Assembly (NCBI GenBank): GCA_021824915.1
Contig: JAKAJP010000022.1
Span: 23,832-87,831, forward strand
Direction of reading: 5' to 3'
Length of the DNA: 64,000 nt
Source: a bacterium
Lineage (GTDB): Bacteria; Patescibacteriota; Microgenomatia; UBA8517
Each line of letters starts with the position of its first letter. Within the stretch, counting starts at the first letter, position 1. Both the position numbers and the translations under genes were made by a program. This document shows positions 9,205 to 39,252 of the stretch, piece after piece. The notes under the pieces were generated by a model. The model saw only the letters and a program-made list of their open reading frames with translations. It was not told the DNA's origin and did no database searches.

Positions 9205-9208
9205 GAAG

Positions 9209-14355: not shown

Positions 14356-14356
14356 A

Positions 14357-22570: not shown

Positions 22571-23479
22571 ATGAAGAAAAAAGCGAGACGCTTCCTATCC
22601 ATCTCTGACCTATCAACCACTGAAATAAAGAAAGTGCTGAACCTAGCACTCAAGATCAAACACAATCCAAAGAAATATTCGAATAAATTAAAGGGGTTAA
22701 CTCTAGCCATGATTTTCGAGAAACCATCACTTAGAACAAGAGTTTCATTTGAGACCGGAATGACTCAGCTTGGAGCCCACGCAATTTATTTAGGGCCCAA
22801 CGACATTCAAATGGGTGTTAGAGAAACTCCTTCCGACATAGCCAGAAATCTGGAAAGAATGGTCGACATTATTATGGCAAGAGTTTTTGAACATCAAAAA
22901 TTAATTGAGTTGTCAAAAGACACGAAAGTTCCCGTAATAAACGGCCTAAGCGACCTTGAACACCCCTGCCAGGCGATGGCTGATATCCTCACGGTCTTAG
23001 AAAAAAAGAAAAAGCTTAAAGGACTCAAACTAACCTTTATAGGAGATTGTGAAAATAATGTCACCCACTCACTTGCAATTCTTTGCGACAAACTCGGAAT
23101 GAAGTTTTTCTGTTCTGCCCCAAAAGGATATGAAATGAAAAAAGAGGTTGTTAAAACACTCAAAAATAAAATTACTGAGGTCGTTGACCCTAAAAAGGCA
23201 ATCGAAAATGCGGATATTGTTGTTACAGACACATGGATAAGTATGGGTGACGAAAAAGAAAAAAAGACTAGGCTGAAAGTTTTTCCGCCATATCAAATTA
23301 ATTCAAAGCTAATGAAGCGGGCGAAGGCGGATGCAATTTTCTTGCATTGCTTACCGGCATATCGTGGATTTGAAGTGACGGATGATATCATCGATGGACC
23401 CCAATCGGTAGTCTTTGATGAGGCAGAAAATCGCCTTCATGTGCAAAAAGCTCTAATTCTCTTCTTATTGGGAAAGTGA
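22571..23479 (+). CDS. argF: ornithine carbamoyltransferase
   Basis: Carbamoyl-phosphate site 'SLRTRVSFE' (STRTR), 'HPCQAMAD' (HPxQ) and 'HCLP' ornithine-binding motif; 302 aa. Confidence 0.85.
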   Translation: MKKKARRFLSISDLSTTEIKKVLNLALKIKHNPKKYSNKLKGLTLAMIFEKPSLRTRVSFETGMTQLGAHAIYLGPNDIQMGVRETPSDIARNLERMVDIIMARVFEHQKLIELSKDTKVPVINGLSDLEHPCQAMADILTVLEKKKKLKGLKLTFIGDCENNVTHSLAILCDKLGMKFFCSAPKGYEMKKEVVKTLKNKITEVVDPKKAIENADIVVTDTWISMGDEKEKKTRLKVFPPYQINSKLMKRAKADAIFLHCLPAYRGFEVTDDIIDGPQSVVFDEAENRLHVQKALILFLLGK

Positions 23480-24337
23480 ACTGACATACTTAAAGAACGC
23501 AATCGGATAATGCATTGCCGAAAAGAATGCCCACAAAAATCCGGCTACTCCATCAAGAAAACCTTTATGGCGAAAGTAAATATTCACGAAGGTATATAGA
23601 GGTTTACCCAAACAATAACTTACAAAACCCAAGAAATTTGCTTTTACCTTCTTTGATCTAAACTCACCTGCTTGCAAATCGGTATATCTATTCATTCTTG
23701 ATAAATACCTTCTTAGGGTCGGAGAATCATAATGTTTCAGCGGGTTAAAAAGCCACGAGACTTCCCCGTCTACCTCTATTTGCTCATGTACCGATTTTTG
23801 GGGAAATCTTGCTTTTCCATTTTTTACAAGTCGTATAACCCCGTCGGGATAAACACCGCCATATCTCAATGGCTTCCCTAGAAAAATGTTTAATCTCGGA
23901 ATAAAGAAAGCAACAACCACCCCGGTATTTTTTCCTATCTTCCCGTCTCGTTCTTCAATCAAACGCTGGTGCTTCCTAAAATGCGTCTCTTCAAGGGTGT
24001 CAGGGTTAATTCTCTTTTTGATTTCTTCATTTGTCATTCCGATTACTTCTTTTATTTCTCTCGCGAGTTCCGGCGTAACTTCTTCATCCGCATCAAGCTG
24101 AAGGATCCAAACACCGGTAGCTTTCTCTAATGCCTTCTCCTTGGTTATATGAAAAATTTCATGATGAGGTTCAAGATAAACTTTTGCACCAAAACTTTCA
24201 GCAATTTCAGTAGTCCGGTCAGTTGAATGCTCATCAACAACTATTATCTCATCGGCAATGTCTTTAACCGATCCTAAACACCGGGCAATGTTCTTCTCTT
24301 CATTTCTCGTTGCCAAAATAACCGAAAGTTTTTCCAT
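23465..24337 (-). CDS. glycosyltransferase family 2 (paralog of 44149..44874 and 45801..46697)
   Basis: 'LSVILATRNEEKNIARCL', 'IIVVDEHSTDRTTEIA', 'LDADEEVTPEL'. Confidence 0.7.
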   Translation of the reverse strand: MEKLSVILATRNEEKNIARCLGSVKDIADEIIVVDEHSTDRTTEIAESFGAKVYLEPHHEIFHITKEKALEKATGVWILQLDADEEVTPELAREIKEVIGMTNEEIKKRINPDTLEETHFRKHQRLIEERDGKIGKNTGVVVAFFIPRLNIFLGKPLRYGGVYPDGVIRLVKNGKARFPQKSVHEQIEVDGEVSWLFNPLKHYDSPTLRRYLSRMNRYTDLQAGEFRSKKVKANFLGFVSYCLGKPLYTFVNIYFRHKGFLDGVAGFLWAFFSAMHYPIAFFKYVSSLSQ

Positions 24338-24338
24338 T

Positions 24339-25988
24339 TTAATTAGCTACCAAATCAAAGTATTCATAACCATTTGTACCATAAATCCTTTTAATGATAT
24401 TGGCTTCTTTTGGTATTTCTTGAGTGGTGCCCGCTACTAAAGATTCAGGGTATTTGGCTTTAATTTCATCCCAAGTTGTAAATGTAACAAACCTGTATTT
24501 GTCAAAACTTCTGACAGTTGAGAAGCCAAAATTATCTCTTGCTGTCAATGAATGACTTCCCTGAAAATTCTGCGGAAGATACTTTGAGTAAAACAAGAAC
24601 AAAATATAGGGTTGATCATACCTATCCGTGACAACAACATTTTTATATTTTGATTGATTAGCATTAACATAACCAACCAACTCTTTGACTCCATATTGCG
24701 AGGAAAAAGGATATTCCTTGCTCATGTGGACCCAATACATATGTTCATATCTGGCAAAATTCCAAGACACCAAAATAATAACAGTGGATAGATAGATAAC
24801 TTTCAATTTTCTTGTCGGATTTTTATTTATCCACTCAAGTATTTGGTAAAGCCCATAAGCGCTAAAAATTATTAGTGGAATAATCATGTTTTGTGAGCGA
24901 AGCGCATTCGGTGATTGAAATGTAAGCGCTGACGCCATTGGAGCAATTGCTAACCAATAAGTAATAAACTTCCATTCGCGGTTGAATCTTTTGGCAATAG
25001 CGACTACCCCAATAGTCAAGAAGATTATATCGAAAAGATACATTTGTCCGGTTTCCGGAACTTTATTTCTCTGAATTGCATCGCCTGACAAAAACAAAAA
25101 CTCCCCATGATAATGCGATGCCCAGTTTGCTGCAAAAGCCAACCCATAATTCACGGCTTTATTATGTAACGCCTTGGTAAAAATATTATTAAGATCACCG
25201 TGCTCGCCACGCTGCTCATTTATTCGATTTCGTGGGCCGGGGTCTGCAAATAACCCCACCCCAGCAACTCTTGAAAGCGCTCCAGGAGAGGTAAGATCAC
25301 GGGCAAGTGGCACAAGTAAAATCAAGGTAATGCCGGCAAAAACCACATATGGAATAATCTTATTAAATATCTCCTTTTTGTAGAAAAATACTATTCCTAA
25401 CCCAAGGAGCGGAACCACAACTCTGGCGGCATGATAAGTATACAAAGACGCAACTAAAAATACCGAGCTCAAAGCCAGAGAAAAGATTTTCTCCACAAAT
25501 CTTTGTGATCGAGCCCTAAAAAAGAAAAACATTCCCGCAACAATGAAAAACGTGGCGACATTCACTTCCCAACCACCCCGGGAAAACTGCAGATGCCAAG
25601 GAGAAATTGACAAAAGGAACGCAGAGATCAAAGCGAACTTTTTATTTCCAAAAATCTCATTCACCAAAAGATACACAAACAAGATAGTTAATACTCCGAG
25701 GGCAGCGCCCGGAATTCTGACCGCCCACTCATTTAATCCTAATATTTTTACGAATGGCAAAACCAAATAAAAATAAAGACCGGGTTTGTAATCGTTAAAC
25801 GATTGAAAATGAATTGGCCAAGCATTTCCGTGCTCGTCATGCCCGGTCAGTATCAATGAATAAGCGTTGTATCCGATCGCGGCTTCATCTGCATTCAATG
25901 CCGGGTAAACATCAAGTTTGTAAAACCTCAAAAAGATTGCTAGGGAAAGAATCAAAATCAAAATTATATTTTTCTTCAAAAATTGCAT
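24339..25988 (-). CDS. GT-C fold glycosyltransferase, PMT/ArnT (GT39)-like, 549 aa
   Basis: Loop-1 'NADEAAIGYNAYSLILTGHDEHG' (DE motif), 'SPWHLQFSRGGWEVNV', about 11 TM helices, conserved C-terminal soluble domain 'QPYILFLFYSKY'. Confidence 0.65.
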   Translation of the reverse strand: MQFLKKNIILILILSLAIFLRFYKLDVYPALNADEAAIGYNAYSLILTGHDEHGNAWPIHFQSFNDYKPGLYFYLVLPFVKILGLNEWAVRIPGAALGVLTILFVYLLVNEIFGNKKFALISAFLLSISPWHLQFSRGGWEVNVATFFIVAGMFFFFRARSQRFVEKIFSLALSSVFLVASLYTYHAARVVVPLLGLGIVFFYKKEIFNKIIPYVVFAGITLILLVPLARDLTSPGALSRVAGVGLFADPGPRNRINEQRGEHGDLNNIFTKALHNKAVNYGLAFAANWASHYHGEFLFLSGDAIQRNKVPETGQMYLFDIIFLTIGVVAIAKRFNREWKFITYWLAIAPMASALTFQSPNALRSQNMIIPLIIFSAYGLYQILEWINKNPTRKLKVIYLSTVIILVSWNFARYEHMYWVHMSKEYPFSSQYGVKELVGYVNANQSKYKNVVVTDRYDQPYILFLFYSKYLPQNFQGSHSLTARDNFGFSTVRSFDKYRFVTFTTWDEIKAKYPESLVAGTTQEIPKEANIIKRIYGTNGYEYFDLVAN

Positions 25989-25989
25989 A

Positions 25990-27642
25990 TTATTTAACGG
26001 CTAAAATTCTAAAAGCAATATCCCGCCCGTTCAAGTATTTTATCTCGGAAACAAGCTTAAACAGATTTGTATCACTTGAATCCTCCGGAGGAATTCTGAC
26101 CGGATCCGCGACGAATAAAGTTCCGTGTTCTCCCCTATTGACCGACCAATCAATTGGGGCAAACTGTATATTATCAAGTGTCAAAATATAGCCAACATCA
26201 TTTATGTTTCCACTTGAAACAAGCTTCGCATTTTTTTGGTACTTAGCGGGGTCGTATTTCTGATAAAAAAGAAAGTAAATATAGGGTTGGGCAAAAGATT
26301 GTTGGACCTTAATTATTTTGTAGTCTTTCTCAAGTGGCGTAACCGTTTCAACAATTTGTTTATAACCGTAATTCCAATATATAGAATCATGAGCGGGAAC
26401 ATGAACAAAATAAGCATCCAAAAAATAAACAAAACCGGCGACGTAAAACATAGCAAAGAATCCAGACAAAACTAACACCGACGAAGTTTTTTTGAAATTG
26501 TCAAAAAATGTCATCAGCCCGAAAGAAATTAAAATTATTAACGGAACTTGCATATTAATAGCCCGGACGGCATGCACTTGATCCCGCGAAAGTACCGCCG
26601 GGAGCGGGGACAAAACCAACCACAACCAAACAAACAAAGCTTCCTTAGATTTTCCTTTCTTAAGAAAGGAAAATGCTCCGACAACAATCAAAACAATATC
26701 GCCTAAAAGGAGCATCCCCTGATACGGGGCGGATTGTCTGGGGTTACTAAAGTCCCCTTCAAAAAACAGAAATCTTCCAGAAAAATGATTAAAATATCGC
26801 CCCAAGATACCTCGCATGAAGTTTAATCCTTCAGAATGAAATAAATAGTAATTTAAATCACCAATCTTTTCTCCACCCTCATCAAGAAACGCCTGTGTAT
26901 AATCTTTCGGCCTCGGATATGAAAAAACACTAAAGACATCAAGCCGACCTGCCTGACCGTTAAACAAACTCAAAACAATAGGCAAAGAGATAATAATTCC
27001 TAAAGTAATTCCACTAAAAAGATACTTTTTTTCAAATTTAAGAATTTGTTTCCAATAAAGAATCGCCAAAAGCACCACTACGATTCCAGTCGAAAGTTTT
27101 GCTCCTTGATATGTTAATAAAGTTAAGGCAAATAAAACTGATGACAAAACAAAATATTTTGACTTTTCCAACGCCTTAAGAAAAAAATAAATTCCCGCAA
27201 GCGTGAGGGTTAGAGAGACATTAACTTCCCAAGCTCCCCGGGAAAAATAAACCGACCAAGGGGTAACCGAAGTAACGAAAGCCGTAAAAATTCCCACCCT
27301 TTTCCCGAACAGGTTAGAGCAAATTAAATAAATCAGAAAGACCGACAGAATTCCTGCAAGTGCGGATGGTAATCTTGTCGAAAATTCATTCAGACCCAAA
27401 GCCGCTACAAACGGTGTATCGAGATAGATATAAAAACCGGGTTTGTAATCACCGAACGACTTAAAAATTATTGGTAAAAACTTACCATACTCATCCCGAC
27501 CAGTCTTCAATATTGAGTATGCGTTATAACCCAATGCCGCTTCATCGGAAGTTAACCCCGGGGGGGTTGTCCCCAACTTCCAAAGCCGCAAGACGGCCGC
27601 CAAAACTAAAATTGAAATCAAAAGCCAGTTTATTTTTCGCAT
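25990..27642 (-). CDS. GT-C fold glycosyltransferase, PMT/ArnT (GT39)-like paralog, 550 aa
   Basis: 'TSDEAALGYNAYSILKTGRDEYG', 'TPWSVYFSRGAWEVNV', C-terminal 'QPYIYFLFYQKYDPAKYQ'. About 50% identical to 24339..25988. Confidence 0.65.
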   Translation of the reverse strand: MRKINWLLISILVLAAVLRLWKLGTTPPGLTSDEAALGYNAYSILKTGRDEYGKFLPIIFKSFGDYKPGFYIYLDTPFVAALGLNEFSTRLPSALAGILSVFLIYLICSNLFGKRVGIFTAFVTSVTPWSVYFSRGAWEVNVSLTLTLAGIYFFLKALEKSKYFVLSSVLFALTLLTYQGAKLSTGIVVVLLAILYWKQILKFEKKYLFSGITLGIIISLPIVLSLFNGQAGRLDVFSVFSYPRPKDYTQAFLDEGGEKIGDLNYYLFHSEGLNFMRGILGRYFNHFSGRFLFFEGDFSNPRQSAPYQGMLLLGDIVLIVVGAFSFLKKGKSKEALFVWLWLVLSPLPAVLSRDQVHAVRAINMQVPLIILISFGLMTFFDNFKKTSSVLVLSGFFAMFYVAGFVYFLDAYFVHVPAHDSIYWNYGYKQIVETVTPLEKDYKIIKVQQSFAQPYIYFLFYQKYDPAKYQKNAKLVSSGNINDVGYILTLDNIQFAPIDWSVNRGEHGTLFVADPVRIPPEDSSDTNLFKLVSEIKYLNGRDIAFRILAVK

Positions 27643-29279
27643 TAACGATTATCTAATATATCAAATGCCGGTTTACCATCAAGAAAATTTATGCTCTCAA
27701 TTTTTCTCCAACTCACTGGATAATTGCCGGGCGATGTAATCAATAAACACTTAATTTTATTGCAGTCTATTTTAACTTTGCTTTCCGTAATTAAATCCCG
27801 CACTTGCCAATCGTTTACAAACCAAAGTTTATCAAAATGATCAACCCACCACCAATTAGATTGATAAAAAGCAATTTTATCCCGATCCGACTGATATTTA
27901 GCAGGATCATATTTTAAGAAAAACAAAAAATATTCATGCGGTTCGCCGTATTTTTTGGTGACAATTATTTTGTCATAATCCTCATAATGTGCTTTTACAT
28001 AAGTCACAACCTGGTCATATCCATATTGCCAGCTCCACGAATAGGTTGTCCGGTAGGTTGTAAAATAATTAACTAAATAGCTTTCCATAAAAAAGTAATA
28101 TAAACCAAAATAAAGAATTAAAATAATGCCGACAAAATTTTTATTAACTTTCTCCAACACCCAATAAAAGGCGAGAGCGATTAATATATCCGGAACGGGA
28201 AGCATTGTTGTGGCACGGACTACAGCATAACTTTCGTTAGTCAAACTTGCAGGAATTGGCGCGAGAATTAACCATAACACAAGAAACCTAAAATTTCGAT
28301 CATGGAGTGATTTAATTATCAATAAAACTATACCAAGGTAAAAAAATGGCAAACCGGCGAGGTTAATTAATCCAAAGCTTGGAATACTAAATTGGTACTG
28401 GGTGCCTCCATTCAAAAACAAAAATTGAGGAGAAAAATAACCAATGTAATTTTTGAGAAACCGGCCAGCAAAATAAACCGGACGGTTATAGATTATCCTC
28501 TTAAGCGGTTCCGGCAATTTTGAAGAAGTGCGCAGGCTTTCAATCTTATTAATAGCCGCCTGATCAATAATAAATAAGACGTTTCCCCGCGCCGTAGCAT
28601 TAGGACTTACCAAAATATAAGCCGACAGGGCTATAAATAAAGCCACAAAAACATAGATCAACTTGCTTCTGACCTCATTCCTAAAAATCAAAAATGTACC
28701 GAGTAGAAATAGCGGCGAGAAAATTCTCGTTGTGTGATACGAAAATAACGTTAATGTTAGGAGAAGTAGCGAAAGCGGGAATAAAAACCTTTTTTTGTCA
28801 CGATTTACAAAACATGCGGCCGTGGTTATCAGTAAAAAAACCGACAAGTTAGATTGCAAAACAAATCTTGAAGTAAAGACGTACCAAGATCCGGTTGCAG
28901 TCAAAAATGCGGTCAGAAGACTAATATTACGCTTTTTGCTTAATCCAAATGTCAAAAAATACACCGACACTATCGTCAAGACGCCCATAATGGCGTGAGG
29001 AAAACGGATTGCAAAATCCGATAGACCAAAAAGAGAGATAAATGGGATGGTTAAATATAAATTTAATGCCGTAGGGTAATCTCCATAAGCCCTAAAATTA
29101 AAGATTGGGAACTTCATACCCCACTGATCCATACCGGTTTTGAGTATCGAGTAGGCGTTATACCCATGGCTTATTTCATCCCAATTAAGTGAGGGCGGAG
29201 TATAAGTCAGATAGGCAAGCCTCAAGGCCGCACCCAAGATCACAATCAAAAATAAATATATTAGACTTTTTCTCTCCAT
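27642..29279 (-). CDS. GT-C fold glycosyltransferase, PMT/ArnT (GT39)-like paralog, 545 aa
   Basis: 'NWDEISHGYNAYSILKTGMDQWG', C-terminal 'EPHEYFLFFLKYDPAKYQ'. 1-bp TAATG overlap with the downstream paralog. Confidence 0.65.
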   Translation of the reverse strand: MERKSLIYLFLIVILGAALRLAYLTYTPPSLNWDEISHGYNAYSILKTGMDQWGMKFPIFNFRAYGDYPTALNLYLTIPFISLFGLSDFAIRFPHAIMGVLTIVSVYFLTFGLSKKRNISLLTAFLTATGSWYVFTSRFVLQSNLSVFLLITTAACFVNRDKKRFLFPLSLLLLTLTLFSYHTTRIFSPLFLLGTFLIFRNEVRSKLIYVFVALFIALSAYILVSPNATARGNVLFIIDQAAINKIESLRTSSKLPEPLKRIIYNRPVYFAGRFLKNYIGYFSPQFLFLNGGTQYQFSIPSFGLINLAGLPFFYLGIVLLIIKSLHDRNFRFLVLWLILAPIPASLTNESYAVVRATTMLPVPDILIALAFYWVLEKVNKNFVGIILILYFGLYYFFMESYLVNYFTTYRTTYSWSWQYGYDQVVTYVKAHYEDYDKIIVTKKYGEPHEYFLFFLKYDPAKYQSDRDKIAFYQSNWWWVDHFDKLWFVNDWQVRDLITESKVKIDCNKIKCLLITSPGNYPVSWRKIESINFLDGKPAFDILDNR

Positions 29280-30724
29280 GTTTTTAGGGAAAGGATTAAA
29301 AATCCCAAAATCGAAACTAAACTAATTATATTTCCCGTTTTTCTGACCGGGGTGTCGGTAAATCTAACCCCAACCGAAGAAATCAACCCGTTAACCGGGG
29401 TAGCGCCCACCCACCCCGGAAAATAATTTATGGACTTGCCATCTGACGGGGTGTTGGGAATTTTGTGCCCGAAACTGGGCCAATAATCACTTATGGAAGC
29501 TGCCCTCTGACGCACCCACTCCGCACCAGTCAGGAAGTAAGAATCATTGACACTATACCAGATATCTTCCCTAAAAAAGGTGAAATTGAGGAAAAAGGTA
29601 GACAAAATAATAATGATTGTTACAAGAATTTTTTGCCTCACAAACAATCTTACGACAATTCCGGAGGCCAGAGCGAAACAAAAAGTGGCTAGACCCAAAA
29701 ACCGCCACGGAAATTGAATATAGGCCATAGCGGGAGTTAAATTCCAAATAAATGTTGACTTGTTATGTGTCAAAAAGAGATAAAAGCAACCAATCAGAAA
29801 CAAAATTATAAACTCCCATTCGCGCGCTATCTTCCTTCTAACCAATAAAAACAGACCAATAAGAAAAGGTAATATCCATTGAATTTGACCCACCGAAAGA
29901 CTTAAGCCATCATTTGGTCCCCAAGTTGAACCCCCATATCCCCAAAACCTGGAAACGAAAAGCTGATAAAGTGTGACAAAATGCGCTCGGTAATCAAAAT
30001 AACCGGTTATCGTACTCTGTAAATCAACAAATTTTGATTCAAAAGCCACTGGTAGTATATAAAAACTTGAAAGGAGCCCTGCAACAATAAAACCCATCGC
30101 CGACTTCCACCACCGGCGATAAATTATCCAAATAGCTAGTAGAGGCAAAAACATTACAAGAGATAAATTGTGAGTAATAACTAAAATTGCGGTCAGAATA
30201 GAAAAGTAAAAAATGTTTTTCTTTTCGATGGCGAGAATAATCAAAGGAAAAAGGATAAAGGAAAACGCCTCGGGCAAAGCCCCTCTAACCCAAACATCGA
30301 CAGCCCTGTAAGGTGCATATACATATAGTATCGCCGAAACGGTCGCCGCGAAATCACTTTTCCAGATTTCCCTTGCTAAAAAGAACATGGCAACTCCCGA
30401 TCCAAGAAGCGAAATAATAAATAAAATCTTGACTGAATCGATAATATTGAATCCGACCAGGTGAAAAATTTCACCAACCCCGTACACAAACTGTCCGTAG
30501 AAATTGAAAATCGGCTCACCATAACCCAACCCCGCATCCGGCGCCCAACGGCATGGAATCTGCCAAGCTTTTATACATTTATCAAATTCAAACTGCCTAA
30601 AGATGTGAAAATCTTGAGTAGAAAAGATTCCTGGCCGGAGCATTCTATAAAAAGTGGGGACTATCAAGATGAGTAATAAAATCAATATTGAATTTTTCTT
30701 GAGTAGATTAATTGGTTGACGCAT
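29261..30724 (-). CDS. membrane protein of the PF10131 '6-pyruvoyl-tetrahydropterin-synthase-related' family (GT-C-like)
   Basis: 'STQDFHIFRQFEFDKCIKAWQIPCRWAPDAGLGYGEPIFNFYGQFVY' matches the conserved N-terminal block of PF10131 proteins. Paralog of 49807..51534. Confidence 0.55.
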   Translation of the reverse strand: MRQPINLLKKNSILILLLILIVPTFYRMLRPGIFSTQDFHIFRQFEFDKCIKAWQIPCRWAPDAGLGYGEPIFNFYGQFVYGVGEIFHLVGFNIIDSVKILFIISLLGSGVAMFFLAREIWKSDFAATVSAILYVYAPYRAVDVWVRGALPEAFSFILFPLIILAIEKKNIFYFSILTAILVITHNLSLVMFLPLLAIWIIYRRWWKSAMGFIVAGLLSSFYILPVAFESKFVDLQSTITGYFDYRAHFVTLYQLFVSRFWGYGGSTWGPNDGLSLSVGQIQWILPFLIGLFLLVRRKIAREWEFIILFLIGCFYLFLTHNKSTFIWNLTPAMAYIQFPWRFLGLATFCFALASGIVVRLFVRQKILVTIIIILSTFFLNFTFFREDIWYSVNDSYFLTGAEWVRQRAASISDYWPSFGHKIPNTPSDGKSINYFPGWVGATPVNGLISSVGVRFTDTPVRKTGNIISLVSILGFLILSLKTWREKV

Positions 30725-32363
30725 ATTGTTTTAATGATGTATCAAGAACTTCTATGGATTTTCTTCCGTCAGGAAAATAAAAAATTTTCACCGGAGTTTG
30801 ACCAGGTAAGAACTCCTCCGGCAGACCGACGACTAATGTGTTGGGTATCTTTATATCCGTTTTCAAATCTATATTCTTAAACGTATATTTTCCGAGCGAA
30901 TATACCGGAATCTGATCTACCCACGTTTCAACTTTCCAATCCCGCGTGGCATTTTGATAATTCCCCGGGTCCCATTTATTTGCAAAGGCCACATAAATCT
31001 GCGGCTCACTAAGCTTCCGGCTAATTATCACATTTTTACCGTCAGAATTTTGATAAAGCCAAGCGGCCACTTCTATATTTCCACTTAACATTCCGGGGGC
31101 GGCAACTAACGGAGAACTAGTGAAATAAACTCTAAAAACATGCTGGATTTGAAAAATGACAAAAAGAGCAAACACGAAACTAGCCAGAGAAATTACTTTT
31201 TTATCAAATCGCGATAGCAAAACTCCTAAACCATACACCCCAAACACTTCAAGGATCTGGAGAACAGGAACCATCGCCTCTGCCCTATTTGCTGAAAAGC
31301 CCACTCCTGTCGCAAGTGCGGCTGGGATAGGAGCAACAAAAAGCCAAACCAAAAAAATCAAAACAATCTTTCTTGTCCTTTTGTCAAAAACGGCAGGAAT
31401 TAATCCCAAAAGCAAAATGCCCTCAAAAATATATAAAACTCCGACTCCGGGGATCATACCGTAAGTTGTTTCCGCCGCGCCTCGAGTAAATAAAAACCTA
31501 AATGAAAAGTACTGAAGGTAATTGGTAACAAACCTTTGAGCGACAACCTGATATTTATTGTGCAAAAGCTTTGCAAAAGTAGGATTTGTACCTTTCTGAA
31601 TCAACTCAATTTTGGCTTTGGCCCCCTCCTCAAGCGCTCCTTGGAAAATAATACGTTCATTAATACGCCCGGCACCACCGACAACTTGGGAATAGGCAAA
31701 CATCGCAATGAAGAGAAGTAAAATTAAAAGAGGGAACATTAGCTTTCTGATATCAATCCTTTGTAATTGTCTCCAGAAGATGGCAACAAGACCAAAAACG
31801 ACAATGGGAGTGATTAGTTTCGCCGAGTGATAAGTAAACAGGGTTAAACCAAAAACTAATGCAGAGAGGTTATATTTTTTCTTTAAGAAAAGATAAATTC
31901 CGAGCGGAATAAAAAGTGTAACCAAGTTCGCCTCAAACGCGCCCCTGCTCATCATCACTGTCCAGGAATTTATAGAAACTAAAAATGCCCCCATAATTGC
32001 ATATCTCCACGATCCTTTGATTCCTAAACTTGTAAACACTTCTTTGATAAGTAGATAAACAACATAAACGGCCAGAGCTCCGACAATTGCGTTGGGTATC
32101 CTGACCGCAAATACATTCAAACCAAAGATTGCTACCGACGGAATCGTTAAATAAGCATAAAGTGGAGATTTGTAATCGCCAAACGACTTTAGGGTGGTAG
32201 GTAAAAAGTTTCCCCACTGGTCGCGACCTGTATGTAAAATTGAGTAGGCGTCATAGCCAAAGGAGGCTTCGTCAGGGGTAAAACCCACCGGAACTTTATC
32301 AATCCATAAAACCCGAAGAAGAAAACCAAGGAGTAAAATCGCGGGCAAGATAAACCGCTTCAT
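30708..32363 (-). CDS. GT-C fold glycosyltransferase, PMT/ArnT (GT39)-like paralog
   Basis: 'TPDEASFGYDAYSILHTGRDQWG', C-terminal 'EPQIYVAFANKWDPGNYQ'. Start set at MKRFILP (Met34), which abuts the upstream stop at 32371. Confidence 0.6.
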   Translation of the reverse strand: MKRFILPAILLLGFLLRVLWIDKVPVGFTPDEASFGYDAYSILHTGRDQWGNFLPTTLKSFGDYKSPLYAYLTIPSVAIFGLNVFAVRIPNAIVGALAVYVVYLLIKEVFTSLGIKGSWRYAIMGAFLVSINSWTVMMSRGAFEANLVTLFIPLGIYLFLKKKYNLSALVFGLTLFTYHSAKLITPIVVFGLVAIFWRQLQRIDIRKLMFPLLILLLFIAMFAYSQVVGGAGRINERIIFQGALEEGAKAKIELIQKGTNPTFAKLLHNKYQVVAQRFVTNYLQYFSFRFLFTRGAAETTYGMIPGVGVLYIFEGILLLGLIPAVFDKRTRKIVLIFLVWLFVAPIPAALATGVGFSANRAEAMVPVLQILEVFGVYGLGVLLSRFDKKVISLASFVFALFVIFQIQHVFRVYFTSSPLVAAPGMLSGNIEVAAWLYQNSDGKNVIISRKLSEPQIYVAFANKWDPGNYQNATRDWKVETWVDQIPVYSLGKYTFKNIDLKTDIKIPNTLVVGLPEEFLPGQTPVKIFYFPDGRKSIEVLDTSLKQYASTN

Positions 32364-32370
32364 AGCTAAA

Positions 32371-33657
32371 TTATATCTTTCCCGCTCTCGTTTGTCGAAG
32401 AAATCTAATATAAAGAAAGATAAAAAGAAGCAAATTGATCGCACCCAAAACCCTTGGAACAATCCTACCGTCTCCAGACATGAAAGCTACAAGTGAAGGA
32501 ATAAGAGGCATCCACCAAAAGTTATACATATTAAGAAGGCTTATTATGCTTACCGCAGTGTAATTAGCAACCAACTCAATTTGCGTAGCTACCAAGATGG
32601 TAAAGTATGGGAAAACAGGATAAAGATATCTTTCATGCATATTAGTTAAAAGCATAAACGAGGCAAAAGCAGTTATCGCAAGACTCCAGACAGCCGTCTT
32701 AAAATCCTGTTTTCTGTAAACAAAAACCAGAACAGGAGCAAAGAAAAACAAAAACAATATATAACTCCAATATTGGAAAGTTAAACCTAGGAATGGTAAC
32801 GTCTGAGGTTGTTCACTTATACCAGTGAGCGCTGCCCAAAGGTTAAACGCATTTGCCGTTATTATCTGAAGCTGGTTAGTGAAAACCTTATCCTTATAAA
32901 GATTGAGTAACCAGACAAATGGCTCCCCGTTAGAAAAAGGTAGAGTTATTAAACCAATAACAAACAGCGTCGACACGATCGCGATCAGCCATTTTTTTAG
33001 ATTATATTTTTGCCTTAAGGCAATTACGGCGAAAATCGGTAAGAAAATCAAAAGCGAAGCTTTAATATAAAGAGAAATGGAAATTGCTAAGATCGCGGGC
33101 ATTAACTCCCTTTTTAGTAAAAAGTAAAAGGCAAGGAGCGCCAGAAAATTTATTACCGAATCATATTGTCCCCAGATCGTCGAATTATACCAGGTAGCCG
33201 GGTTAATCAAAAAAACTATTGCCCCGATGGTTGCAACTTTTTCGCTCACCTTAAGTTCCTTAAAAATAATTTTGTAAATAACATAAGCTATCCCTAGGTC
33301 AGATAAAATTCCAGGGAGTTTGGTCAGTGCCGGATATAAGCTCTGTTCAAAATACAAAAGAAACGATCCCGGGAACACTTTCAGATCAAAATGGAGATAG
33401 CTGAAAAAAGCAAATAACACCTCATAAAGTTTACGGACTGCCGCGAACATATACATAGTTCCCGGCGGCTGATTTGGCCAAGTAAAACTCCAAACATTAC
33501 TTTCGGGGGCGTAAAACTTGGCGGGTCCATATTGCCAAAATCTTATTCCCCAATCAATATGATTATTTACATCCGGGTGCCAAACCAAAAACGAGACAAC
33601 AAGCTTTAATATAAAAGCAAAAAATAAAACTTTAAAAATCGGTTTTATTTTATTCAT
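32371..33657 (-). CDS. GT-C fold membrane glycosyltransferase, ALG6/ALG8 (GT57)-like or GT87/DUF2029-like
   Basis: N-terminal 'HPDVNNHIDWGIRFWQYGPAKFY…WPNQPPGTMYMF' resembles the D-x-x-H-R-x-W…W…LDYPP block of ALG6/ALG8. About 11 TM helices; 428 aa. Confidence 0.4.
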   Translation of the reverse strand: MNKIKPIFKVLFFAFILKLVVSFLVWHPDVNNHIDWGIRFWQYGPAKFYAPESNVWSFTWPNQPPGTMYMFAAVRKLYEVLFAFFSYLHFDLKVFPGSFLLYFEQSLYPALTKLPGILSDLGIAYVIYKIIFKELKVSEKVATIGAIVFLINPATWYNSTIWGQYDSVINFLALLAFYFLLKRELMPAILAISISLYIKASLLIFLPIFAVIALRQKYNLKKWLIAIVSTLFVIGLITLPFSNGEPFVWLLNLYKDKVFTNQLQIITANAFNLWAALTGISEQPQTLPFLGLTFQYWSYILFLFFFAPVLVFVYRKQDFKTAVWSLAITAFASFMLLTNMHERYLYPVFPYFTILVATQIELVANYTAVSIISLLNMYNFWWMPLIPSLVAFMSGDGRIVPRVLGAINLLLFIFLYIRFLRQTRAGKI

Positions 33658-35408
33658 TTCACACCGGTGAAAAGGTAAAAGGCTGGCTCCCCAGAAGGAT
33701 AAGCAATTGTTTTAATAAGTTTAATGTCTTGTGGAGTTCTTTCAGGTTCCATTATTAAATTTATATTTACCTCCTTAGCATCTGCCAAATACAACGTCTT
33801 TGAGTTAATTTCTTTTCCCCAATCATATAGTCCACCACTAAATGAACCAAAGTAGAACTTATCTATATGTGAAACTTTACCTAAGCCAGGTATATTAACA
33901 TCATTACCTATGGGAAAATTTTTCTGCCATGCTTCCGGAGGGTATTCATACCAAGCGGCAAAAAAGACCCACGGAGGTTCGTTTGCTGTAGAAATAACTA
34001 CCTTGTCATAATTTTTATCGATTTGCTTAACGGATTGTATTGCTTCTTTGTATCCTGCGTGCCACCAGCGCTCACTATTCCACGGATAATGAACGTAGTA
34101 CTCATGGATATATAGCGAAAAGCTAACGGTATATAGAGAGGCAAGAAAAACAAAAAACAAAACTTTATATTTGCTTGATATCTTATTAAAGATTCCTACC
34201 CAGCCGAAAGCAATCAAAAAGATTAGAGGTGGAAGAATAAGTATCAAGCGGGTTGCATGATTTCCTCCGTCTCGGGTTAAAGCCGCCGGAACAACTCCGA
34301 ACAAAATCCAGAGAGCCAACAATATCTTTATCTTTGTGTTCCTGGATTTTTCCGAAAAGAAAAATATGATCCCAAATATCAACGCAATTATCTCTACCCT
34401 GTAAAATTCACCCATTCCGATTGACTGGCGCAAATTTGGATCGCCCTTAACAAAAAGAAAGTTTGTTGAAAAGGCTGAAAGATAATTTTGGATAATTACA
34501 TTTCCGGCAAAAGTAAACTTATTATGTATCACCCTGTCAAAAATTTTTGGAGATAGACCGGTTCCCTTTTCGCCACGCATTCTTGCATCGGTCTCCCGGG
34601 CGTTCCCGACTTCGGTTTCAATCGTCGGATCTGAAAAAACACTTATGTAGTTAAACCTTTGTGTGCCTCCTCCAAAAAGGGTACTATAAGCGATCGGGAC
34701 GCCAACAATTAAACCCACGACTATAGAAGTAATCAGACTGGATTTTCGCATCGAAATTATCTCATTTTTGAATAAAACAAAAAGGGTCACAAGAAAAATT
34801 GGGGTAAAAAGTTTAGCAGTTGAATATACCCACGGCATTAAAACAAAAGAAATAACGCTCATCCAAAGCCATTTGTCATTTTTAAGAGACTTGAAAAATA
34901 ACCACAAACCCATGAGAAGCAGAAATATCATTTGAGTTGCCTCAAATCCGGCGCGTGAGTATTGTAAACTCCAGGGGTTAATTGCCATCAGGAATGCGGC
35001 GAGAAGAGATCGGTAATGTTTTCCCGTTGGCGGCTCCTTAAAACTCAAGAACTCTTTAACAAAAAGATATGTCATCAATACCGACAAAATTCCAAAAATT
35101 GCAGCGGGGAGCCGCACGCCAAAAGGAGTAATTCCGAAAATAGCAACCGTGGGAACAGCAGAATATAAATAAAGTGGTGTTCTCCACTCGGCAAGGGAAT
35201 GAAAATGAATCGGAAACGCGTTTCCGTAATAGTCTTTACCCGTATGTAGAATCGAATATGCCTGATACCCCAGGTCTAATTCATCCCCAAAAAGCGAAAC
35301 AGGGTCAGCCGAAAGTTTGTAAAGCCTTAAAAAAGTCGCCAGAAGTATTATTAAAATCAAAATAAACTTTTGGTTAAAGATCTTCCTAAGCATTATTAAG
35401 TGTATCAC
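33654..35408 (-). CDS. GT-C fold glycosyltransferase, PMT/ArnT (GT39)-like paralog, 584 aa
   Basis: 'FGDELDLGYQAYSILHTGKDYYG', 'NPWSLQYSRAGFEAT', C-terminal 'EPPWVFFAAWYEYPPEAWQ'. Confidence 0.6.
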   Translation of the reverse strand: MIHLIMLRKIFNQKFILILIILLATFLRLYKLSADPVSLFGDELDLGYQAYSILHTGKDYYGNAFPIHFHSLAEWRTPLYLYSAVPTVAIFGITPFGVRLPAAIFGILSVLMTYLFVKEFLSFKEPPTGKHYRSLLAAFLMAINPWSLQYSRAGFEATQMIFLLLMGLWLFFKSLKNDKWLWMSVISFVLMPWVYSTAKLFTPIFLVTLFVLFKNEIISMRKSSLITSIVVGLIVGVPIAYSTLFGGGTQRFNYISVFSDPTIETEVGNARETDARMRGEKGTGLSPKIFDRVIHNKFTFAGNVIIQNYLSAFSTNFLFVKGDPNLRQSIGMGEFYRVEIIALIFGIIFFFSEKSRNTKIKILLALWILFGVVPAALTRDGGNHATRLILILPPLIFLIAFGWVGIFNKISSKYKVLFFVFLASLYTVSFSLYIHEYYVHYPWNSERWWHAGYKEAIQSVKQIDKNYDKVVISTANEPPWVFFAAWYEYPPEAWQKNFPIGNDVNIPGLGKVSHIDKFYFGSFSGGLYDWGKEINSKTLYLADAKEVNINLIMEPERTPQDIKLIKTIAYPSGEPAFYLFTGVK

Positions 35409-36892
35409 CTATTTCTCCAGTAAATAAAATAAGATTCTGTTCCATCCAACTCTCGTATTGTTTCAATAATGTCAAAACTACCAGAACCCACATTTTTTCG
35501 ATCAACCACTACAATGCTGTAAACCGGAAAATTAACAAAGTTTTCCTTATGGGAATCAAAATAGGAAACTGCGGGTGGATAAATACTTAGCTTCCGTTCA
35601 AAGAAATCAAAATAATATTTAGATTGGAAGATATTTTCATCGATATAAACTTTTTTGACCGGCCGGATTTTAGTACTCCTTAAAACCGATTCGAATGCCC
35701 CACCAATATTGTTATTAAAGACTGCACGGCTCCGGATACGATAGTTGCCAAAATAGTCAGTTATAAAAAAAGTAAAAAGTAAAACGTAAAAAGTAAAAAG
35801 TGTGTAGAACACAGGACGAAGCAATTTTTCTTTAGATTCCAAACAAAACCTAATTCCGTAAACCGATAATAGAATTGTAAACGGAATTACAACCAGCGCC
35901 CTTGAGATTCTACCCGGATCATTAATTATTGACGGAGCCAAAGGATATGTTAAAAACCCAAATAACAACAATTTCGAGAAACTAGTTTTCTCTTTGAGTG
36001 CGTATACAAATCCCAGAACTAAAAAGACAAATAACGGAAACAGGAATACGCCAACCCTACCAGTGGAGTGTATAAGAGTACGGTCCCCAGTATTAAACAA
36101 AATGCCGGGGTCAAAGTAAGTAATATAATTTTCCAGAAAATTGGATCCTAAATTTTTGTCTATGCTGGTCGCGTAACTTACTTGGTTCGATAAAGTATCA
36201 GGATGTTTAATTAACCAAGGAACAAAAATTATAATCGGGATTAAGAAACCAACGGTTAAAAGTAAACTTTTCTTTAACAACTTTTCCCTCTGTATCACGA
36301 TAATAGGTATTAACGTTGCTAGGAAATATAGAGGAAAGTAGATCTTTCCGGCATGATAACTATGGACTCCAAAACCCAACACCAAACCCGCCAAAAAATA
36401 ATTTTTTCTGAATAAAAAAATCAGCCACAAAAGAACGAAAAAGATCGGGTAAACATTATCGAGCATTAATCTCGAATTGATAAAAAAGGCCGGAGTGGTC
36501 AATAAAAGAATTCCTGAGATCGATGTCAGATATTTCTTTCCAAAAATCATGTGGGTTAGAAGCATTATTAGCCCTATATCGACAACACCCAACAAGGCCG
36601 TAGGAAATCTCACGCCGGCTTCATTAAAAGGTAAAAACTTCATTAAAAGACTGGACCAATAAACTATAACCGGCGTTGCCCAAAAATTATCCAAATGCCA
36701 AAAATAGAATGGCAGTTTATTACCATAAAAATCGCGTCCAATATCCGAAATCGATTTCGCATTTAATGCAAACATTGCTTCGTCTTGGTTAAGATGCACC
36801 GGAGAAAAAGAAAGTTTAAGTGTGAGTAAAACTAAACCTAAAAGAAGGGTTATGACGTATGGAAAAAGGTTTTTAAGAATTTTTGCCATTTT
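35405..36892 (-). CDS. GT-C fold glycosyltransferase, PMT/ArnT-like (divergent paralog)
   Basis: 'NQDEAMFALNAKSISDIGRDFYG' DE-loop and multiple TM helices. Start ambiguous: 36976, 36943-ish or 36892. All choices overlap the 3' end of the upstream GT2 gene. Confidence 0.5.
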   Translation of the reverse strand, partial: KMAKILKNLFPYVITLLLGLVLLTLKLSFSPVHLNQDEAMFALNAKSISDIGRDFYGNKLPFYFWHLDNFWATPVIVYWSSLLMKFLPFNEAGVRFPTALLGVVDIGLIMLLTHMIFGKKYLTSISGILLLTTPAFFINSRLMLDNVYPIFFVLLWLIFLFRKNYFLAGLVLGFGVHSYHAGKIYFPLYFLATLIPIIVIQREKLLKKSLLLTVGFLIPIIIFVPWLIKHPDTLSNQVSYATSIDKNLGSNFLENYITYFDPGILFNTGDRTLIHSTGRVGVFLFPLFVFLVLGFVYALKEKTSFSKLLLFGFLTYPLAPSIINDPGRISRALVVIPFTILLSVYGIRFCLESKEKLLRPVFYTLFTFYVLLFTFFITDYFGNYRIRSRAVFNNNIGGAFESVLRSTKIRPVKKVYIDENIFQSKYYFDFFERKLSIYPPAVSYFDSHKENFVNFPVYSIVVVDRKNVGSGSFDIIETIRELDGTESYFIYWRNR

Positions 36893-37698
36893 TGGCCAAG
36901 CCAAAGAATAAAAAACAAAACATAATGCCTCAGCCAACCATGGTATATCTTGCTGGAAGGGATAAGCTTTCTCCAACGGACCGCTTCGTCGCTGGCAAGT
37001 TTTTTGAATGTTGCACCATGATAATGCGTGATAACGGAGTCCGGCAGATAGTAAACTTTAAGCCCATTCCTCCATGTTTGACGACAATAATCTATATCTT
37101 CAAAATATGCAAAATAACGCTCATCCAACATTCCCACTCTTTTTAGAGCCAATGGCGTAATAAGAAAGGCAGCACCAACCAAGGAGTCCACGGTGACGGC
37201 CTTTTTTGTAATAGGCGCATATTTATCAAAAAGCCCTTTAGATCCCAACCAATATTCTTTTATGGCATTTGTGATTGTGGGAAAGTGAAAACATGAAGCT
37301 TGAAGAGATCCGTCAATGTTAAGTAGTTTTGACCCAATTACACCAGCATCCGGCGTAACTTTAGCGAATCTAATCAAGTTTTGCAATGCATCCTTATGAA
37401 CAATGGTGTCATTATTAAGCAGCATCACATACTTACCCTCAGCCTTTTTTATCCCCTGGTTATTTGCTTTTCCATAACCGGTATTAGATTTATTAAAGAT
37501 TAAGGTAAGTTTGTTCCTCCAAAAAGATTCCTTTTGCAATGATTTAAGAGCTTCGACCGAGCCATCGGTACTTCCATTGTCGGTTAAAAGGACTTCGTAG
37601 GATAGGCCCTTCCCCTCCTTCTGGATTGATCTCAAACAACCCAGAGTTAAATCTTTTGTGTTGAGATTTACAATAACAATTGATAATTGTGGCTTCAT
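36850..37698 (-). CDS. glycosyltransferase family 2
   Basis: 'LSIVIVNLNTKDLTLGCL', 'VLLTDNGSTDGS', 'MLLNNDTIV' (DxD-like). Start set at MKPQLSI, abutting the upstream stop at 37700. Confidence 0.7.
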   Translation of the reverse strand: MKPQLSIVIVNLNTKDLTLGCLRSIQKEGKGLSYEVLLTDNGSTDGSVEALKSLQKESFWRNKLTLIFNKSNTGYGKANNQGIKKAEGKYVMLLNNDTIVHKDALQNLIRFAKVTPDAGVIGSKLLNIDGSLQASCFHFPTITNAIKEYWLGSKGLFDKYAPITKKAVTVDSLVGAAFLITPLALKRVGMLDERYFAYFEDIDYCRQTWRNGLKVYYLPDSVITHYHGATFKKLASDEAVRWRKLIPSSKIYHGWLRHYVLFFILWLGQKWQKFLKTFFHTS

Positions 37699-37699
37699 A

Positions 37700-38599
37700 T
37701 CACTTAAAACGCGAGAAAATAACCTCGTCGGAAACTTTGGATTCACGGATTTCTTTCTTTCTCTTTGATATAGCAACCCCAAGACGTGTCAGTGCCATTA
37801 ATACAACTCTGATGTAACCGGGATGTTTAATAAATCTCATAAAAACTCCTCCTATATGCTTTCTCGTTAAAGTAGGGCTTGTTATATTCTTCCAAACACA
37901 AAGTAGTTGGTTCCGCTCTCTTACTCTTTGAACATAACTTTTTGGAAATTTGCTAATAGTAGATTCATGGTGATGCTCAACAATTCCACCCGGTTCCCAA
38001 CCTAAAACTAAACCCCTTTTTGCAGCTCTGTAGCACAAATCTATATCTTCCCAATAAAACGGCGAAAGAAGTTTTTCGTCCATTCCCCCCAAGGTTACCC
38101 AATGCTTGCGACTAAAAACCCCGCTTCCACCACTGACATAGAAGCTGCTATGAAACTCTTTACTCTCCTCGCCCATTGCAAGCTGGATGTAGCCATCATA
38201 AAACGCGCCTTTGGCATAACCCATTCCTTTTTCGTGAAGTGAAACTGCAAACATATTCGGTTTATCAAAATGCGGGAGAACAGAAACAAGAAAATCCTTC
38301 TCCGGCAGGACGTCGGTATTGATAAGTAATATCAAATCTCCTTTTGCACTCCTCACACCTGTATTGACAGCCGCAGAAAAACCCCTGTTAACCTTATGAC
38401 GGATAAGCCTGATGCCTGGAAATTTAGCTTTGATGAGCGCGACACTGTCATCCCAAGATCCATCGTCCACTATTATTATTTCGAGTATGGAGTTTGGTGA
38501 ATAATTTTTAGCGGCAATAAGCTTAGGCAAGTTTTTTTCCAAAAGCTCTTTGCCATTTAAGTTTGGCATTACTACTGAAACTTTGTGTGACTTTGTCAT
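37700..38599 (-). CDS. glycosyltransferase family 2
   Basis: 'VSVVMPNLNGKELL', 'IIVDDGSWDDS', 'LLINTDV', C-terminal 'WEDIDLCYRA' (GT2 family Q/WxxRW-like region). Confidence 0.7.
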   Translation of the reverse strand: MTKSHKVSVVMPNLNGKELLEKNLPKLIAAKNYSPNSILEIIIVDDGSWDDSVALIKAKFPGIRLIRHKVNRGFSAAVNTGVRSAKGDLILLINTDVLPEKDFLVSVLPHFDKPNMFAVSLHEKGMGYAKGAFYDGYIQLAMGEESKEFHSSFYVSGGSGVFSRKHWVTLGGMDEKLLSPFYWEDIDLCYRAAKRGLVLGWEPGGIVEHHHESTISKFPKSYVQRVRERNQLLCVWKNITSPTLTRKHIGGVFMRFIKHPGYIRVVLMALTRLGVAISKRKKEIRESKVSDEVIFSRFK

Positions 38600-39252
38600 A
38601 CTTTCCTCACTTTAACCAAGTGTAACATCCCAAGATTAAATTTCCTGTCAACTTCTATCTTAAATCCGGCCTCTTTGCATACGCGTGGTAAATAATTATT
38701 ACGATATGTCTGGATATGAGTATCCCGCCAAACCCAGCCACGCGGATAAAAATGCAACCAAACAAACCAGACAACTCTAAAAAGAAGACTGTCTGACGGA
38801 ACCAAGAAGACCCCATAACCTCCTTTTTTAAGAATTCTTTTTACTTCAGTCAAAACTTTTTTGGGATTAACCACATGTTCTAACACTTCCATCGCAAACA
38901 CGGCATTAAAAGTACCAGACTTAAATTTCAAGTCATGAGCATCCCCAACCATAAATTTCATCCTTTTCTCATGCTTCCAGTGATGTTTTGCCCAGTCAAT
39001 AGAAGTTTTTATCACATCAATCCCTATATATTTGTCTGCTTTGGATTTATTAAATATTACCTTTGAAAAAACTCCGTCTGCACAACCGATATCCAATACC
39101 GTCCCGCCCGTTGGCTCGACCAATTTTGCCACTTCCGTAAATCTCCGCCAGTGCCAATATTTTTGAAGCGGATCAACGCGCAAAGATTGATAGTACCAAT
39201 TGGGAGGTGTGTTCTTGTGCAACTCAACTGCTTTTTCAAATGTAGCGTCCAT
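38596..39252 (-). CDS. class I SAM-dependent methyltransferase
   Basis: 'VLDIGCADGVFS', 'YIGIDV', 'FNAVFAMEVLEHV'. ATGA overlap with the downstream GT2. Confidence 0.7.
   Translation of the reverse strand: MDATFEKAVELHKNTPPNWYYQSLRVDPLQKYWHWRRFTEVAKLVEPTGGTVLDIGCADGVFSKVIFNKSKADKYIGIDVIKTSIDWAKHHWKHEKRMKFMVGDAHDLKFKSGTFNAVFAMEVLEHVVNPKKVLTEVKRILKKGGYGVFLVPSDSLLFRVVWFVWLHFYPRGWVWRDTHIQTYRNNYLPRVCKEAGFKIEVDRKFNLGMLHLVKVRKV

Follow-up and report, generated by a model that had tools for sequence, protein, structure and literature searches.

The 64-kb window examined here (64,000 nt of contig JAKAJP010000022.1, from a bacterium of the Microgenomatia, Patescibacteriota) contains eight successive genes, six of which encode related membrane glycosyltransferases of the GT-C class. 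Their arrangement raises the question of what a set of paralogous GT-C enzymes does in a genome of this kind, as bacteria of the candidate phyla radiation (CPR) have genomes of about 0.6–0.9 Mb in which many biosynthetic pathways are missing. On balance, we regard the array as a conserved Microgenomates (CPR) operon for extracytoplasmic glycosylation, which would provide a non-redundant set of GT-C enzymes using polyprenyl-phosphate sugars.

The array spans 24339–36976 and consists of eight successive open reading frames (ORFs), all on the minus strand, at the positions reported by the first-pass annotation of the window. Named by their lowest coordinate and taken in increasing order, the ORFs are 549, 550, 545, 487, 584, 428, 584 and 523 aa long. 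Inspection of start codons revised two of these starts, in agreement with independent gene calls for the identical locus on a public contig: the 30708 gene likely begins at ATG 32363, giving 551 aa (584 aa in the listed ORF), and the 35405 gene at ATG 36889, giving 494 aa (523 aa in the maximal ORF, which extends to TTG 36976). In reading order, and including the family 2 glycosyltransferase (GT2) gene that follows, the genes are:

35405–36889 (−): GT-C paralog 6, 494 aa; PMT_2-type, the most divergent; C-terminal domain 35408–35740
33654–35408 (−): GT-C paralog 5, 584 aa; PMT_2-type; GTG start with GGAG upstream; C-terminal domain 33657–34085
32371–33657 (−): weakly GT87/ALG6-like polytopic membrane protein, 428 aa; a different GT-C class, without the C-terminal domain
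30708–32363 (−): GT-C paralog 4, 551 aa; PMT_2-like, under the gathering score; C-terminal domain 30711–31112
29261–30724 (−): YfhO/PTPS_related-like GT-C candidate, 487 aa
27642–29279 (−): GT-C paralog 3, 545 aa; PMT_2/PMT-type; C-terminal domain 27645–28052
25990–27642 (−): GT-C paralog 2, 550 aa, the modelled member; C-terminal domain residues 415–550 (DNA 25993–26400)
24339–25988 (−): GT-C paralog 1, 549 aa; PMT/PMT_2-type; C-terminal domain 24342–24722
23465–24337 (−): cytoplasmic GT2, 290 aa; Pfam Glycos_transf_2; closes the putative conserved operon, 1 nt past the last GT-C gene

Six Members of One GT-C Subfamily

Five of the six paralogs score above the gathering score of the Pfam model PMT_2 (PF13231; 28.7–57.6 bits against 26.1), with the 25990 protein at 57.6 bits, while the product of the 30708 gene reaches 21.2 bits and remains under the cut-off of 26.1. 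The Pfam PMT model is also passed by two of the six. When a profile of all six was compared with the PDB, ArnT (5ezm, E 4.9e-5) was the sole significant match. Public records already annotate these proteins as GT39 or ArnT-family glycosyltransferases.

The paralogs are more diverged than was first proposed. Over their full length, pairwise identities are 23–33% by BLASTP and by alignment, in place of the 40–50% given previously, and are far from the near-identity that would point to a duplication made during assembly. A D-E pair directly after the first transmembrane (TM) helix is invariant in the alignment of all six (residues 33–34 in the 25990 protein). The longer loop-1 motif described as common to the six fits five of them closely; the 35405 protein keeps the DE pair but not the GY.AYS or TG elements. 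The C-terminal soluble block is indeed shared by all six, both in the alignment and according to a profile of the block, for which the window, translated in six frames, contained no matches but these six ORFs. Polar residues conserved across the family (D33, E34, D50, S134, R135, E139, Y178, R233 and R360) all fall in predicted outside loops. The six paralogs are anciently diverged members of a single ArnT/PMT-like GT-C subfamily.

Two specific functions were considered for these proteins and rejected. That of ArnT is contradicted by the equivalog model NF009784 (16.9 bits against a cut-off of 567, for one paralog only) and by the type of organism. That of a canonical protein O-mannosyltransferase (GT39) is contradicted by the MIR and PMT_4TMC models, which are unmatched in all six proteins at E ≤ 0.01.

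Predicted Fold and Membrane Topology

An AlphaFold2 model of the 25990 protein (pLDDT 86.4, pTM 0.88) was compared with solved structures by Foldseek. The best match to the whole model was ArnT (5f15, E 4.9e-8, TM-score 0.55), followed by STT3/AglB/PglB, ALG12/ALG9, Pmt4 and the Aft enzymes, and the Foldseek probability was 1.00 for ArnT, STT3/AglB/PglB, ALG12/9, Pmt4 and AftA/B/D. As modelled, the 25990 protein has the three-dimensional fold of a GT-C enzyme.

Eleven TM helices are predicted in all six paralogs. The density of lysine plus arginine is 0.26–0.45 in the predicted inside loops of the six compared with 0.09–0.14 in the short outside loops, which places the N-terminus inside. With 11 helices, the loop carrying the DE pair, the long external loop 4 (EL4) and the C-terminal domain are then all outside. 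The first-pass annotation had taken the C-terminal domain to be extracytoplasmic, and this agrees with the helix number and the positive-inside pattern in six of six paralogs, as well as with the ArnT-like model. By this prediction the domain is not cytoplasmic but lies on the same side of the membrane as the catalytic loop. Neither of the two outcomes named in the first-pass annotation as refuting its proposal, a cytoplasmic C-terminal block and near-identical paralogs, was observed.

The C-Terminal Domain

The C-terminal domain is 111–143 aa long across the six paralogs, the shortest (111 aa) being that of the 35405 protein; the first-pass annotation had given about 150 aa. In a Pfam scan of the six proteins no model covered it. 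A profile of the domain, searched against 1.84 billion representative sequences, matched 2262 clusters (50% identity), 866 of them at E ≤ 1e-10. Among the 150 matches listed, the full-length ones (about 530–590 aa) carry the domain at their extreme C-terminus, the shorter ones resemble gene fragments, and no other architectures were seen.

Its predicted fold is α/β. Foldseek found no match to the domain in the PDB under E 0.06 and no confident solved match, and ArnT was not retrieved by domain-level searches with it. In GT136, EmbC and AftD, β-sandwich carbohydrate-binding modules (CBMs) at the C-terminus have been shown to bind acceptors (PMC11127046). A module of that kind was rejected for the array proteins on the basis of fold, as an α/β domain is not of the β-sandwich CBM type.

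Conservation across Microgenomates

The organism of the window is a Woesebacterium (CPR). Homologues of the 25990 protein come from sources named Candidatus Woesebacteria or Patescibacteria, with identities of up to 60–78%. Scanning of species-representative genomes gave at least 537 related stretches, of which the best loci were analysed; the best 80 of these are all from Microgenomates (Woese-, Blackburn-, Shapiro- and Amesbacteria, and 'Microgenomatus'). Orthogroups were assigned by best-hit mapping and a neighbour-joining tree of 390 GT-Cs carrying the C-terminal domain, and were represented as follows:

24339 orthogroup: 77 loci, no duplicates
25990 orthogroup: 84 loci
27642 orthogroup: 77 loci
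30708 orthogroup: 66 loci, no duplicates
33654 orthogroup: 44 loci; the 10-kb flank restricts this count

The first four orthogroups have essentially a single member per locus. The sixth paralog, 35405, is rare, with 5 of the 390 tree sequences in its clade. Gene order is fixed in about 80 species, running 33654 > (32371) > 30708 > (29261) > 27642 > 25990 > 24339 > GT2, and the trio 27642-25990-24339 forms a near-universal core. In each of four related loci (L004–L007) a GT2 gene follows the 24339 orthologue. Some small genomes carry reduced loci, one of them (L072) with only the trio and two others (L083, L084) with a single member.

Orthologues are 40–68% identical, compared with about 30% between paralogs, and fall into separate orthogroups, indicating that the duplications predate the divergence of these candidate phyla. 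The duplications had been described as old, which is upheld by the one-to-one orthologues in other Microgenomates. The accompanying label of a 'tandem family expansion' is misleading, as the wording implies a local event and the array is ancient and collinear across Woese-, Blackburn-, Shapiro- and Amesbacteria. The identical locus is present on a public contig, and it was independently assembled in several samples. Downstream of the array, orthologues of a 382-aa protein (20300 in the window) are found in most related loci, and a flippase gene is present in L006 and L007.

When protein regions were compared, identity was highest in external loop 1 (EL1; 0.61 within orthogroups, 0.46 between), which we read as the shared catalytic machinery. 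For EL4 the values were 0.47 within and 0.24 between orthogroups (ratio 1.93), and for the C-terminal domain 0.44 and 0.24 (ratio 1.81). Elsewhere the within/between ratios were 1.33–1.47, so that EL4 and the C-terminal domain have the highest ratios together with the lowest identity between orthogroups. This is the pattern that would be expected if these two regions carried paralog-specific recognition.

Several peculiarities were seen among the related loci. L006 has an α/β-hydrolase gene (9130–10008) separating its 27642 and 25990 orthologues, three copies of the YfhO-like gene and, after the terminal GT2, an AbiEii toxin/DUF6922 pair (14108–15026). Many records titled 'uncultured Gammaproteobacteria bacterium' (L009, L012–L015 and others, some of them 0.6–0.8 Mb chromosomes) carry the operon at 40–66% identity; these titles appear to be placeholders or wrong taxonomic labels.

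Gene Junctions and Probable Operon Structure

Going from the low-coordinate end, the 24339/25990 junction is a 1-nt gap, 25990/27642 a 1-nt overlap (TAATG), 27642/29261 a 19-nt overlap, 29261/30708 a 17-nt overlap, 30708/32371 a 7-nt gap, and 32371/33654 and 33654/35405 are 4-nt overlaps (ATGA and GTGA, respectively). The TAATG and ATGA overlaps noted earlier are present, but the range of −1 to +8 bp given with them missed the overlaps of 19 and 17 nt. The first GT2 gene upstream (36850–37782) overlaps the start of the 35405 gene by 40 nt. A Shine-Dalgarno sequence is absent at most of the array starts, consistent with translational coupling. All eight genes are part of a co-directional string of genes (23465–53190) in which the largest gap is at most 72 nt.

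Promoter and terminator scans found sites no more commonly than in shuffled sequence, and so neither support nor break an operon. The proposal that the eight genes form a single operon is plausible from the junctions, with no signal from these scans beyond the shuffled controls. Scans for tRNA genes and Rfam families across the 64-kb window found nothing.

One promoter-like site (32398–32370, minus strand; TCGACA-17-TATAAT, 11 of 12 matches) falls within the last part (3′ end) of the 32371 coding sequence, and its −10 box precedes the ATG of the 30708 gene by 7 nt. This site may act as an internal promoter and yield a near-leaderless transcript, or may have arisen by chance.

The Two Interleaved Genes

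The 29261 gene had been called a PF10131 gene. It has no direct Pfam match of its own at E ≤ 1, and a PDB sequence-profile search of its family was empty; what links it to this family are its relatives. It is 38% identical to a YfhO/PTPS_related gene of the window at 49807, which matches PF10131 and passes YfhO (30.4 bits against 28.5), and its orthologues carry PF10131/PF09586. It is found in only part of the related loci.

For the 32371 gene, described as ALG6/GT87-like, the matches in the window are weak and sub-threshold, both to GT87 (PF09594; 16.6 bits, cut-off 25, E 0.0067) and to Alg6_Alg8 (PF03155; 11.4 bits, E 0.15). One orthologue matches Alg6_Alg8 at E 8.9e-6, and the gene is kept at the same position in most related loci. 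No match was returned by a PDB sequence-profile search of the family.

Proposed Function and Alternatives

The reading of the array as a conserved operon for extracytoplasmic glycosylation builds on features that the analysis established directly, namely family membership, topology, fold, the ancient orthogroups and collinearity. In such a system, lipid-linked precursors and polyprenyl-phosphate sugars would be made in the cytoplasm by GT2 and GT4 enzymes encoded in the island and by ArnC/DPM1-like synthases, and Wzx-type flippases would export both. At the membrane's outer face, each GT-C paralog would then transfer a sugar according to its particular specificity for linkage or acceptor site. 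The joint product would be a conserved glycoconjugate of the cell surface, attached either to protein or to a lipid or polymer. EL4 and the C-terminal domain would be the main sites of paralog-specific recognition, and there is precedent for acceptor-binding C-terminal modules on GT-C enzymes (PMC11127046). The type of donor, the non-redundancy of roles, acceptor recognition by the C-terminal domain and any set sequence of steps are inferred.

Three points weigh against this reading. Topology was derived from hydropathy, charge and the helices of the model, in place of coordinates or a dedicated predictor; the tree, made by neighbour joining from stop-to-stop ORFs, has no bootstrap; and the operon is deduced from gene spacing only, because neither promoter nor terminator scans exceeded what shuffled sequence gave.

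How the paralogs might divide the work can be pictured in several ways. The first is an assembly line like that of the ALG enzymes, as the first-pass annotation had suggested: one lipid- or protein-linked glycan would grow by a single residue per GT-C, all of them acting in a set order, with the C-terminal domain holding the common acceptor. The collinear, conserved gene order and the one-per-genome orthogroups are in keeping with this, as are the catalytic residues kept in all paralogs and the ALG6-like member within the array, and the Wzx flippases, cytoplasmic glycosyltransferases and DPM1/ArnC-like synthases of the island parallel the logic of ALG, RFT1 and DPM1. However, lineages that hold only the trio 27642-25990-24339 (L072) or one member (L083, L084) speak against it, and the C-terminal domain is among the most divergent regions between paralogs, its 24% identity fitting different rather than identical ligands. 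A line of this kind can be entertained tentatively, at somewhat less than even chances.

Parallel decoration, in which each paralog has its own target (surface proteins or positions on a wall polymer) or its own polyprenyl-phosphate sugar, in the manner of Gtr, YfhO or PMT enzymes, is in keeping with the divergence of the outside-facing regions. Several candidate lipid-phosphate-sugar synthases are present in the island, the PMT family is above the gathering score for two paralogs, and the YfhO-like genes are weakly similar to PgfM2, and island GT2 genes to PgfS, of the Streptococcus Pgf protein-glycosylation system. Additions of side chains by GT-C enzymes of this sort are common in bacteria (PMC11127046). 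On the other hand, independent decorations would not usually leave five orthogroups so strictly conserved together, and in one order, in tiny genomes, MIR and PMT_4TMC domains are absent, and no GtrA-type small flippase was seen among the window ORFs of at least 120 aa, which include only flippases of the Wzx type. We consider parallel decoration doubtful.

The paralogs might instead form one hetero-oligomeric membrane enzyme, with the gene overlaps serving to match stoichiometry and the C-terminal domains providing interaction surfaces. Pmt1-Pmt2 and EmbA-EmbB are examples of complexes between paralogs. Genes overlap from stop to start, or are separated by at most 7 nt, at all seven junctions, and the trio 27642-25990-24339 is adjacent and co-retained; but every member has full catalytic motifs, and the existence of a complex would not exclude the other models. 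As a distinct explanation it is improbable. Sequential action, parallel decoration and hetero-oligomer formation are mutually compatible models.

An assembly artefact or recent local duplication of a single gene, for which the tandem arrangement is the sole argument, can be dismissed with near certainty given the 23–33% identity, the independent assemblies from several samples and the separate orthogroup of each paralog.

A more ambitious form of the extracytoplasmic glycosylation reading may also be put forward, though as a whole it is unlikely. Here, five to seven anciently duplicated GT-Cs, together with the YfhO- and ALG6-like GT-Cs, would form a lineage-defining assembly line acting sequentially on one acceptor. 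The undescribed α/β domain would be the paralog-specific reader of that acceptor, and the product a conserved surface glycan for the envelope or host attachment of ultra-small, probably episymbiotic cells. If both the sequential model and the lineage-defining glycan were true, the array would do in bacteria what the ALG enzymes do in the lumen, and would be of correspondingly greater interest.

Comparison with Known Systems

ArnT (GT83; 5EZM/5F15) is the best structural match to the array proteins and shares with them the PMT_2 family, an acidic motif on external loop 1 and a soluble outside domain after the last TM helix. It has 13 TM helices, whereas the array paralogs are predicted to have 11. 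Lipid A synthesis is not known from CPR bacteria, so that the acceptor must differ from that of ArnT.

The PMTs (GT39: Pmt1/2/4 and actinobacterial Pmt) have 11 TM helices, as predicted for the array proteins, and share the DE pair of loop 1; Pfam PMT is matched by two paralogs and Pmt4 is among the Foldseek matches. In PMTs the MIR domain interrupts a large loop of the membrane part, whereas the soluble domain of the array proteins is C-terminal, without MIR or PMT_4TMC.

In the eukaryotic luminal ALG pathway (ALG3/9/12/6/8/10) and in the mycobacterial PimE/Mpt/Emb/Aft series, a glycan that has been primed in the cytoplasm and flipped is extended on the other side by several GT-Cs, with polyprenyl-phosphate sugars as donors. 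Analogous parts are encoded in the island, and ALG12, ALG9 and Aft are among the structural matches. Those enzymes, however, belong to other GT families (GT22/57/58/59/87/53/85 and others) and are mostly not paralogs of one subfamily in one operon; in the array, a weak ALG6/GT87 signal is confined to the 32371 gene.

The three-component systems (GtrABC; CsbB/GtcA/YfhO; Citrobacter GT136, PMC11127046) combine a polyprenyl-phosphate-sugar synthase, a flippase and a GT-C acting outside the membrane. YfhO-like genes, candidate GT2 synthases and GT-Cs are found in the array and island, without a GtrA-type flippase among the ORFs of at least 120 aa, but three-component systems use one GT-C per modification and here there are five to seven conserved paralogs.

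Despite their tiny genomes, several candidate phyla have kept this 12-kb stretch of GT-C paralogs in fixed order, and such conservation implies an important surface glycoconjugate. For work on acceptor choice by GT-Cs, the paralogs would be a useful natural series, with specificity differences that map to EL4 and the C-terminal domain. A search of the accessible literature on GT-C arrays in CPR bacteria and Microgenomates turned up no publication on the conserved array or on its C-terminal domain; the paper on one Microgenomates genome goes no further than to mention '29 genes of glycosyl transferases' (PMC7143001). What is already public is the annotation of these proteins as glycosyltransferases.

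The Surrounding Glycan Island

The whole window is a glycan island, encoded almost wholly on the minus strand. Features outside the array that bear on the proposed pathway are:

38596–39252 (−): S-adenosylmethionine (SAM) methyltransferase, upstream of the array, overlapping the next gene
37700–38599 (−): GT2, upstream, co-directional and overlapping
36850–37782 (−): GT2, upstream, co-directional and overlapping
20300–21448 (−): conserved membrane protein, 382 aa; weak PMT_2 match, E 4.4e-4
19056–20312 (−): Wzx-like flippase; Pfam Polysacc_synt_3, E 8.5e-16
14357–15307 (−): ArnC/GtrB-like GT2, 316 aa; candidate polyprenyl-phosphate-sugar synthase, possibly supplying donor to the GT-Cs

At least eight further PMT_2 genes are present (4528, 6453, 39259, 51607, 56310, 57800, 60266 and 62551), in addition to the weakly PMT_2-like 20300. 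In total the window encodes about 15 PMT_2-type, three YfhO-like (29261, 40760 and 49807) and one ALG6/GT87-like GT-C gene. A second Wzx-like flippase (48321) accompanies that at 19056, and there are many genes for GT2, GT4, sugar-nucleotide modifying enzymes and methyltransferases. The 14357 GT2 matches NCBIfam PRK10714 over its full length (E 2.1e-53), under the equivalog cut-off, and PgfS at E 1.9e-41. Two small DPM1/PgfS-like GT2 genes, 55564 and 61795, are also candidate polyprenyl-phosphate-sugar synthases.

Four of the further PMT_2 genes (39259–40791, 56310–57803, 57800–59338 and 60266–61813) make up a second subfamily with 24–27% mutual identity and without the C-terminal domain. Two of its members adjoin the DPM1/PgfS-like GT2 genes (55564–56313 and 61795–62499), and have the look of pairs of donor synthase and GT-C. 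The PMT_2 paralog at 51607–53190 has a different C-terminal region, with a weak, sub-threshold match to IPT/TIG (β-sandwich; E 0.005), which suggests that island GT-Cs may carry interchangeable outside-facing C-terminal modules.

Two minus-strand ORFs of 618 and 553 aa (16424–18280 and 46700–48361) have no Pfam or NCBIfam match and might be polymerase- or ligase-like components. The first of these is kept near the array in several related loci, at 43–55% identity. A 506-aa ORF (9209–10729, minus strand) has a full DegT/DnrJ aminotransferase domain followed by a C-terminal stretch of about 110 aa with weak matches to Polysacc_synt_C, Cupin_2 and FdtA, and is either a fusion or an ORF run-on.

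The few plus-strand genes of the window are at 69–755, 10780–12039, 22571–23479 and 62551–63711. That at 22571–23479 encodes an ornithine/aspartate carbamoyltransferase, convergent with the operon-terminal GT2 gene and overlapping it by 15 nt. It is present in contigs of the same species (L001–L003) and absent from this position in L004–L007, and so looks like a lineage-specific insertion. In a genome of 0.9 Mb the island would take up about 7%. Every 2-kb block of the window has a negative GC skew (−0.05 to −0.27), and the minus strand carries nearly all of the genes, a bias that recalls the strand composition disparity reported for another Microgenomates genome (PMC7143001).

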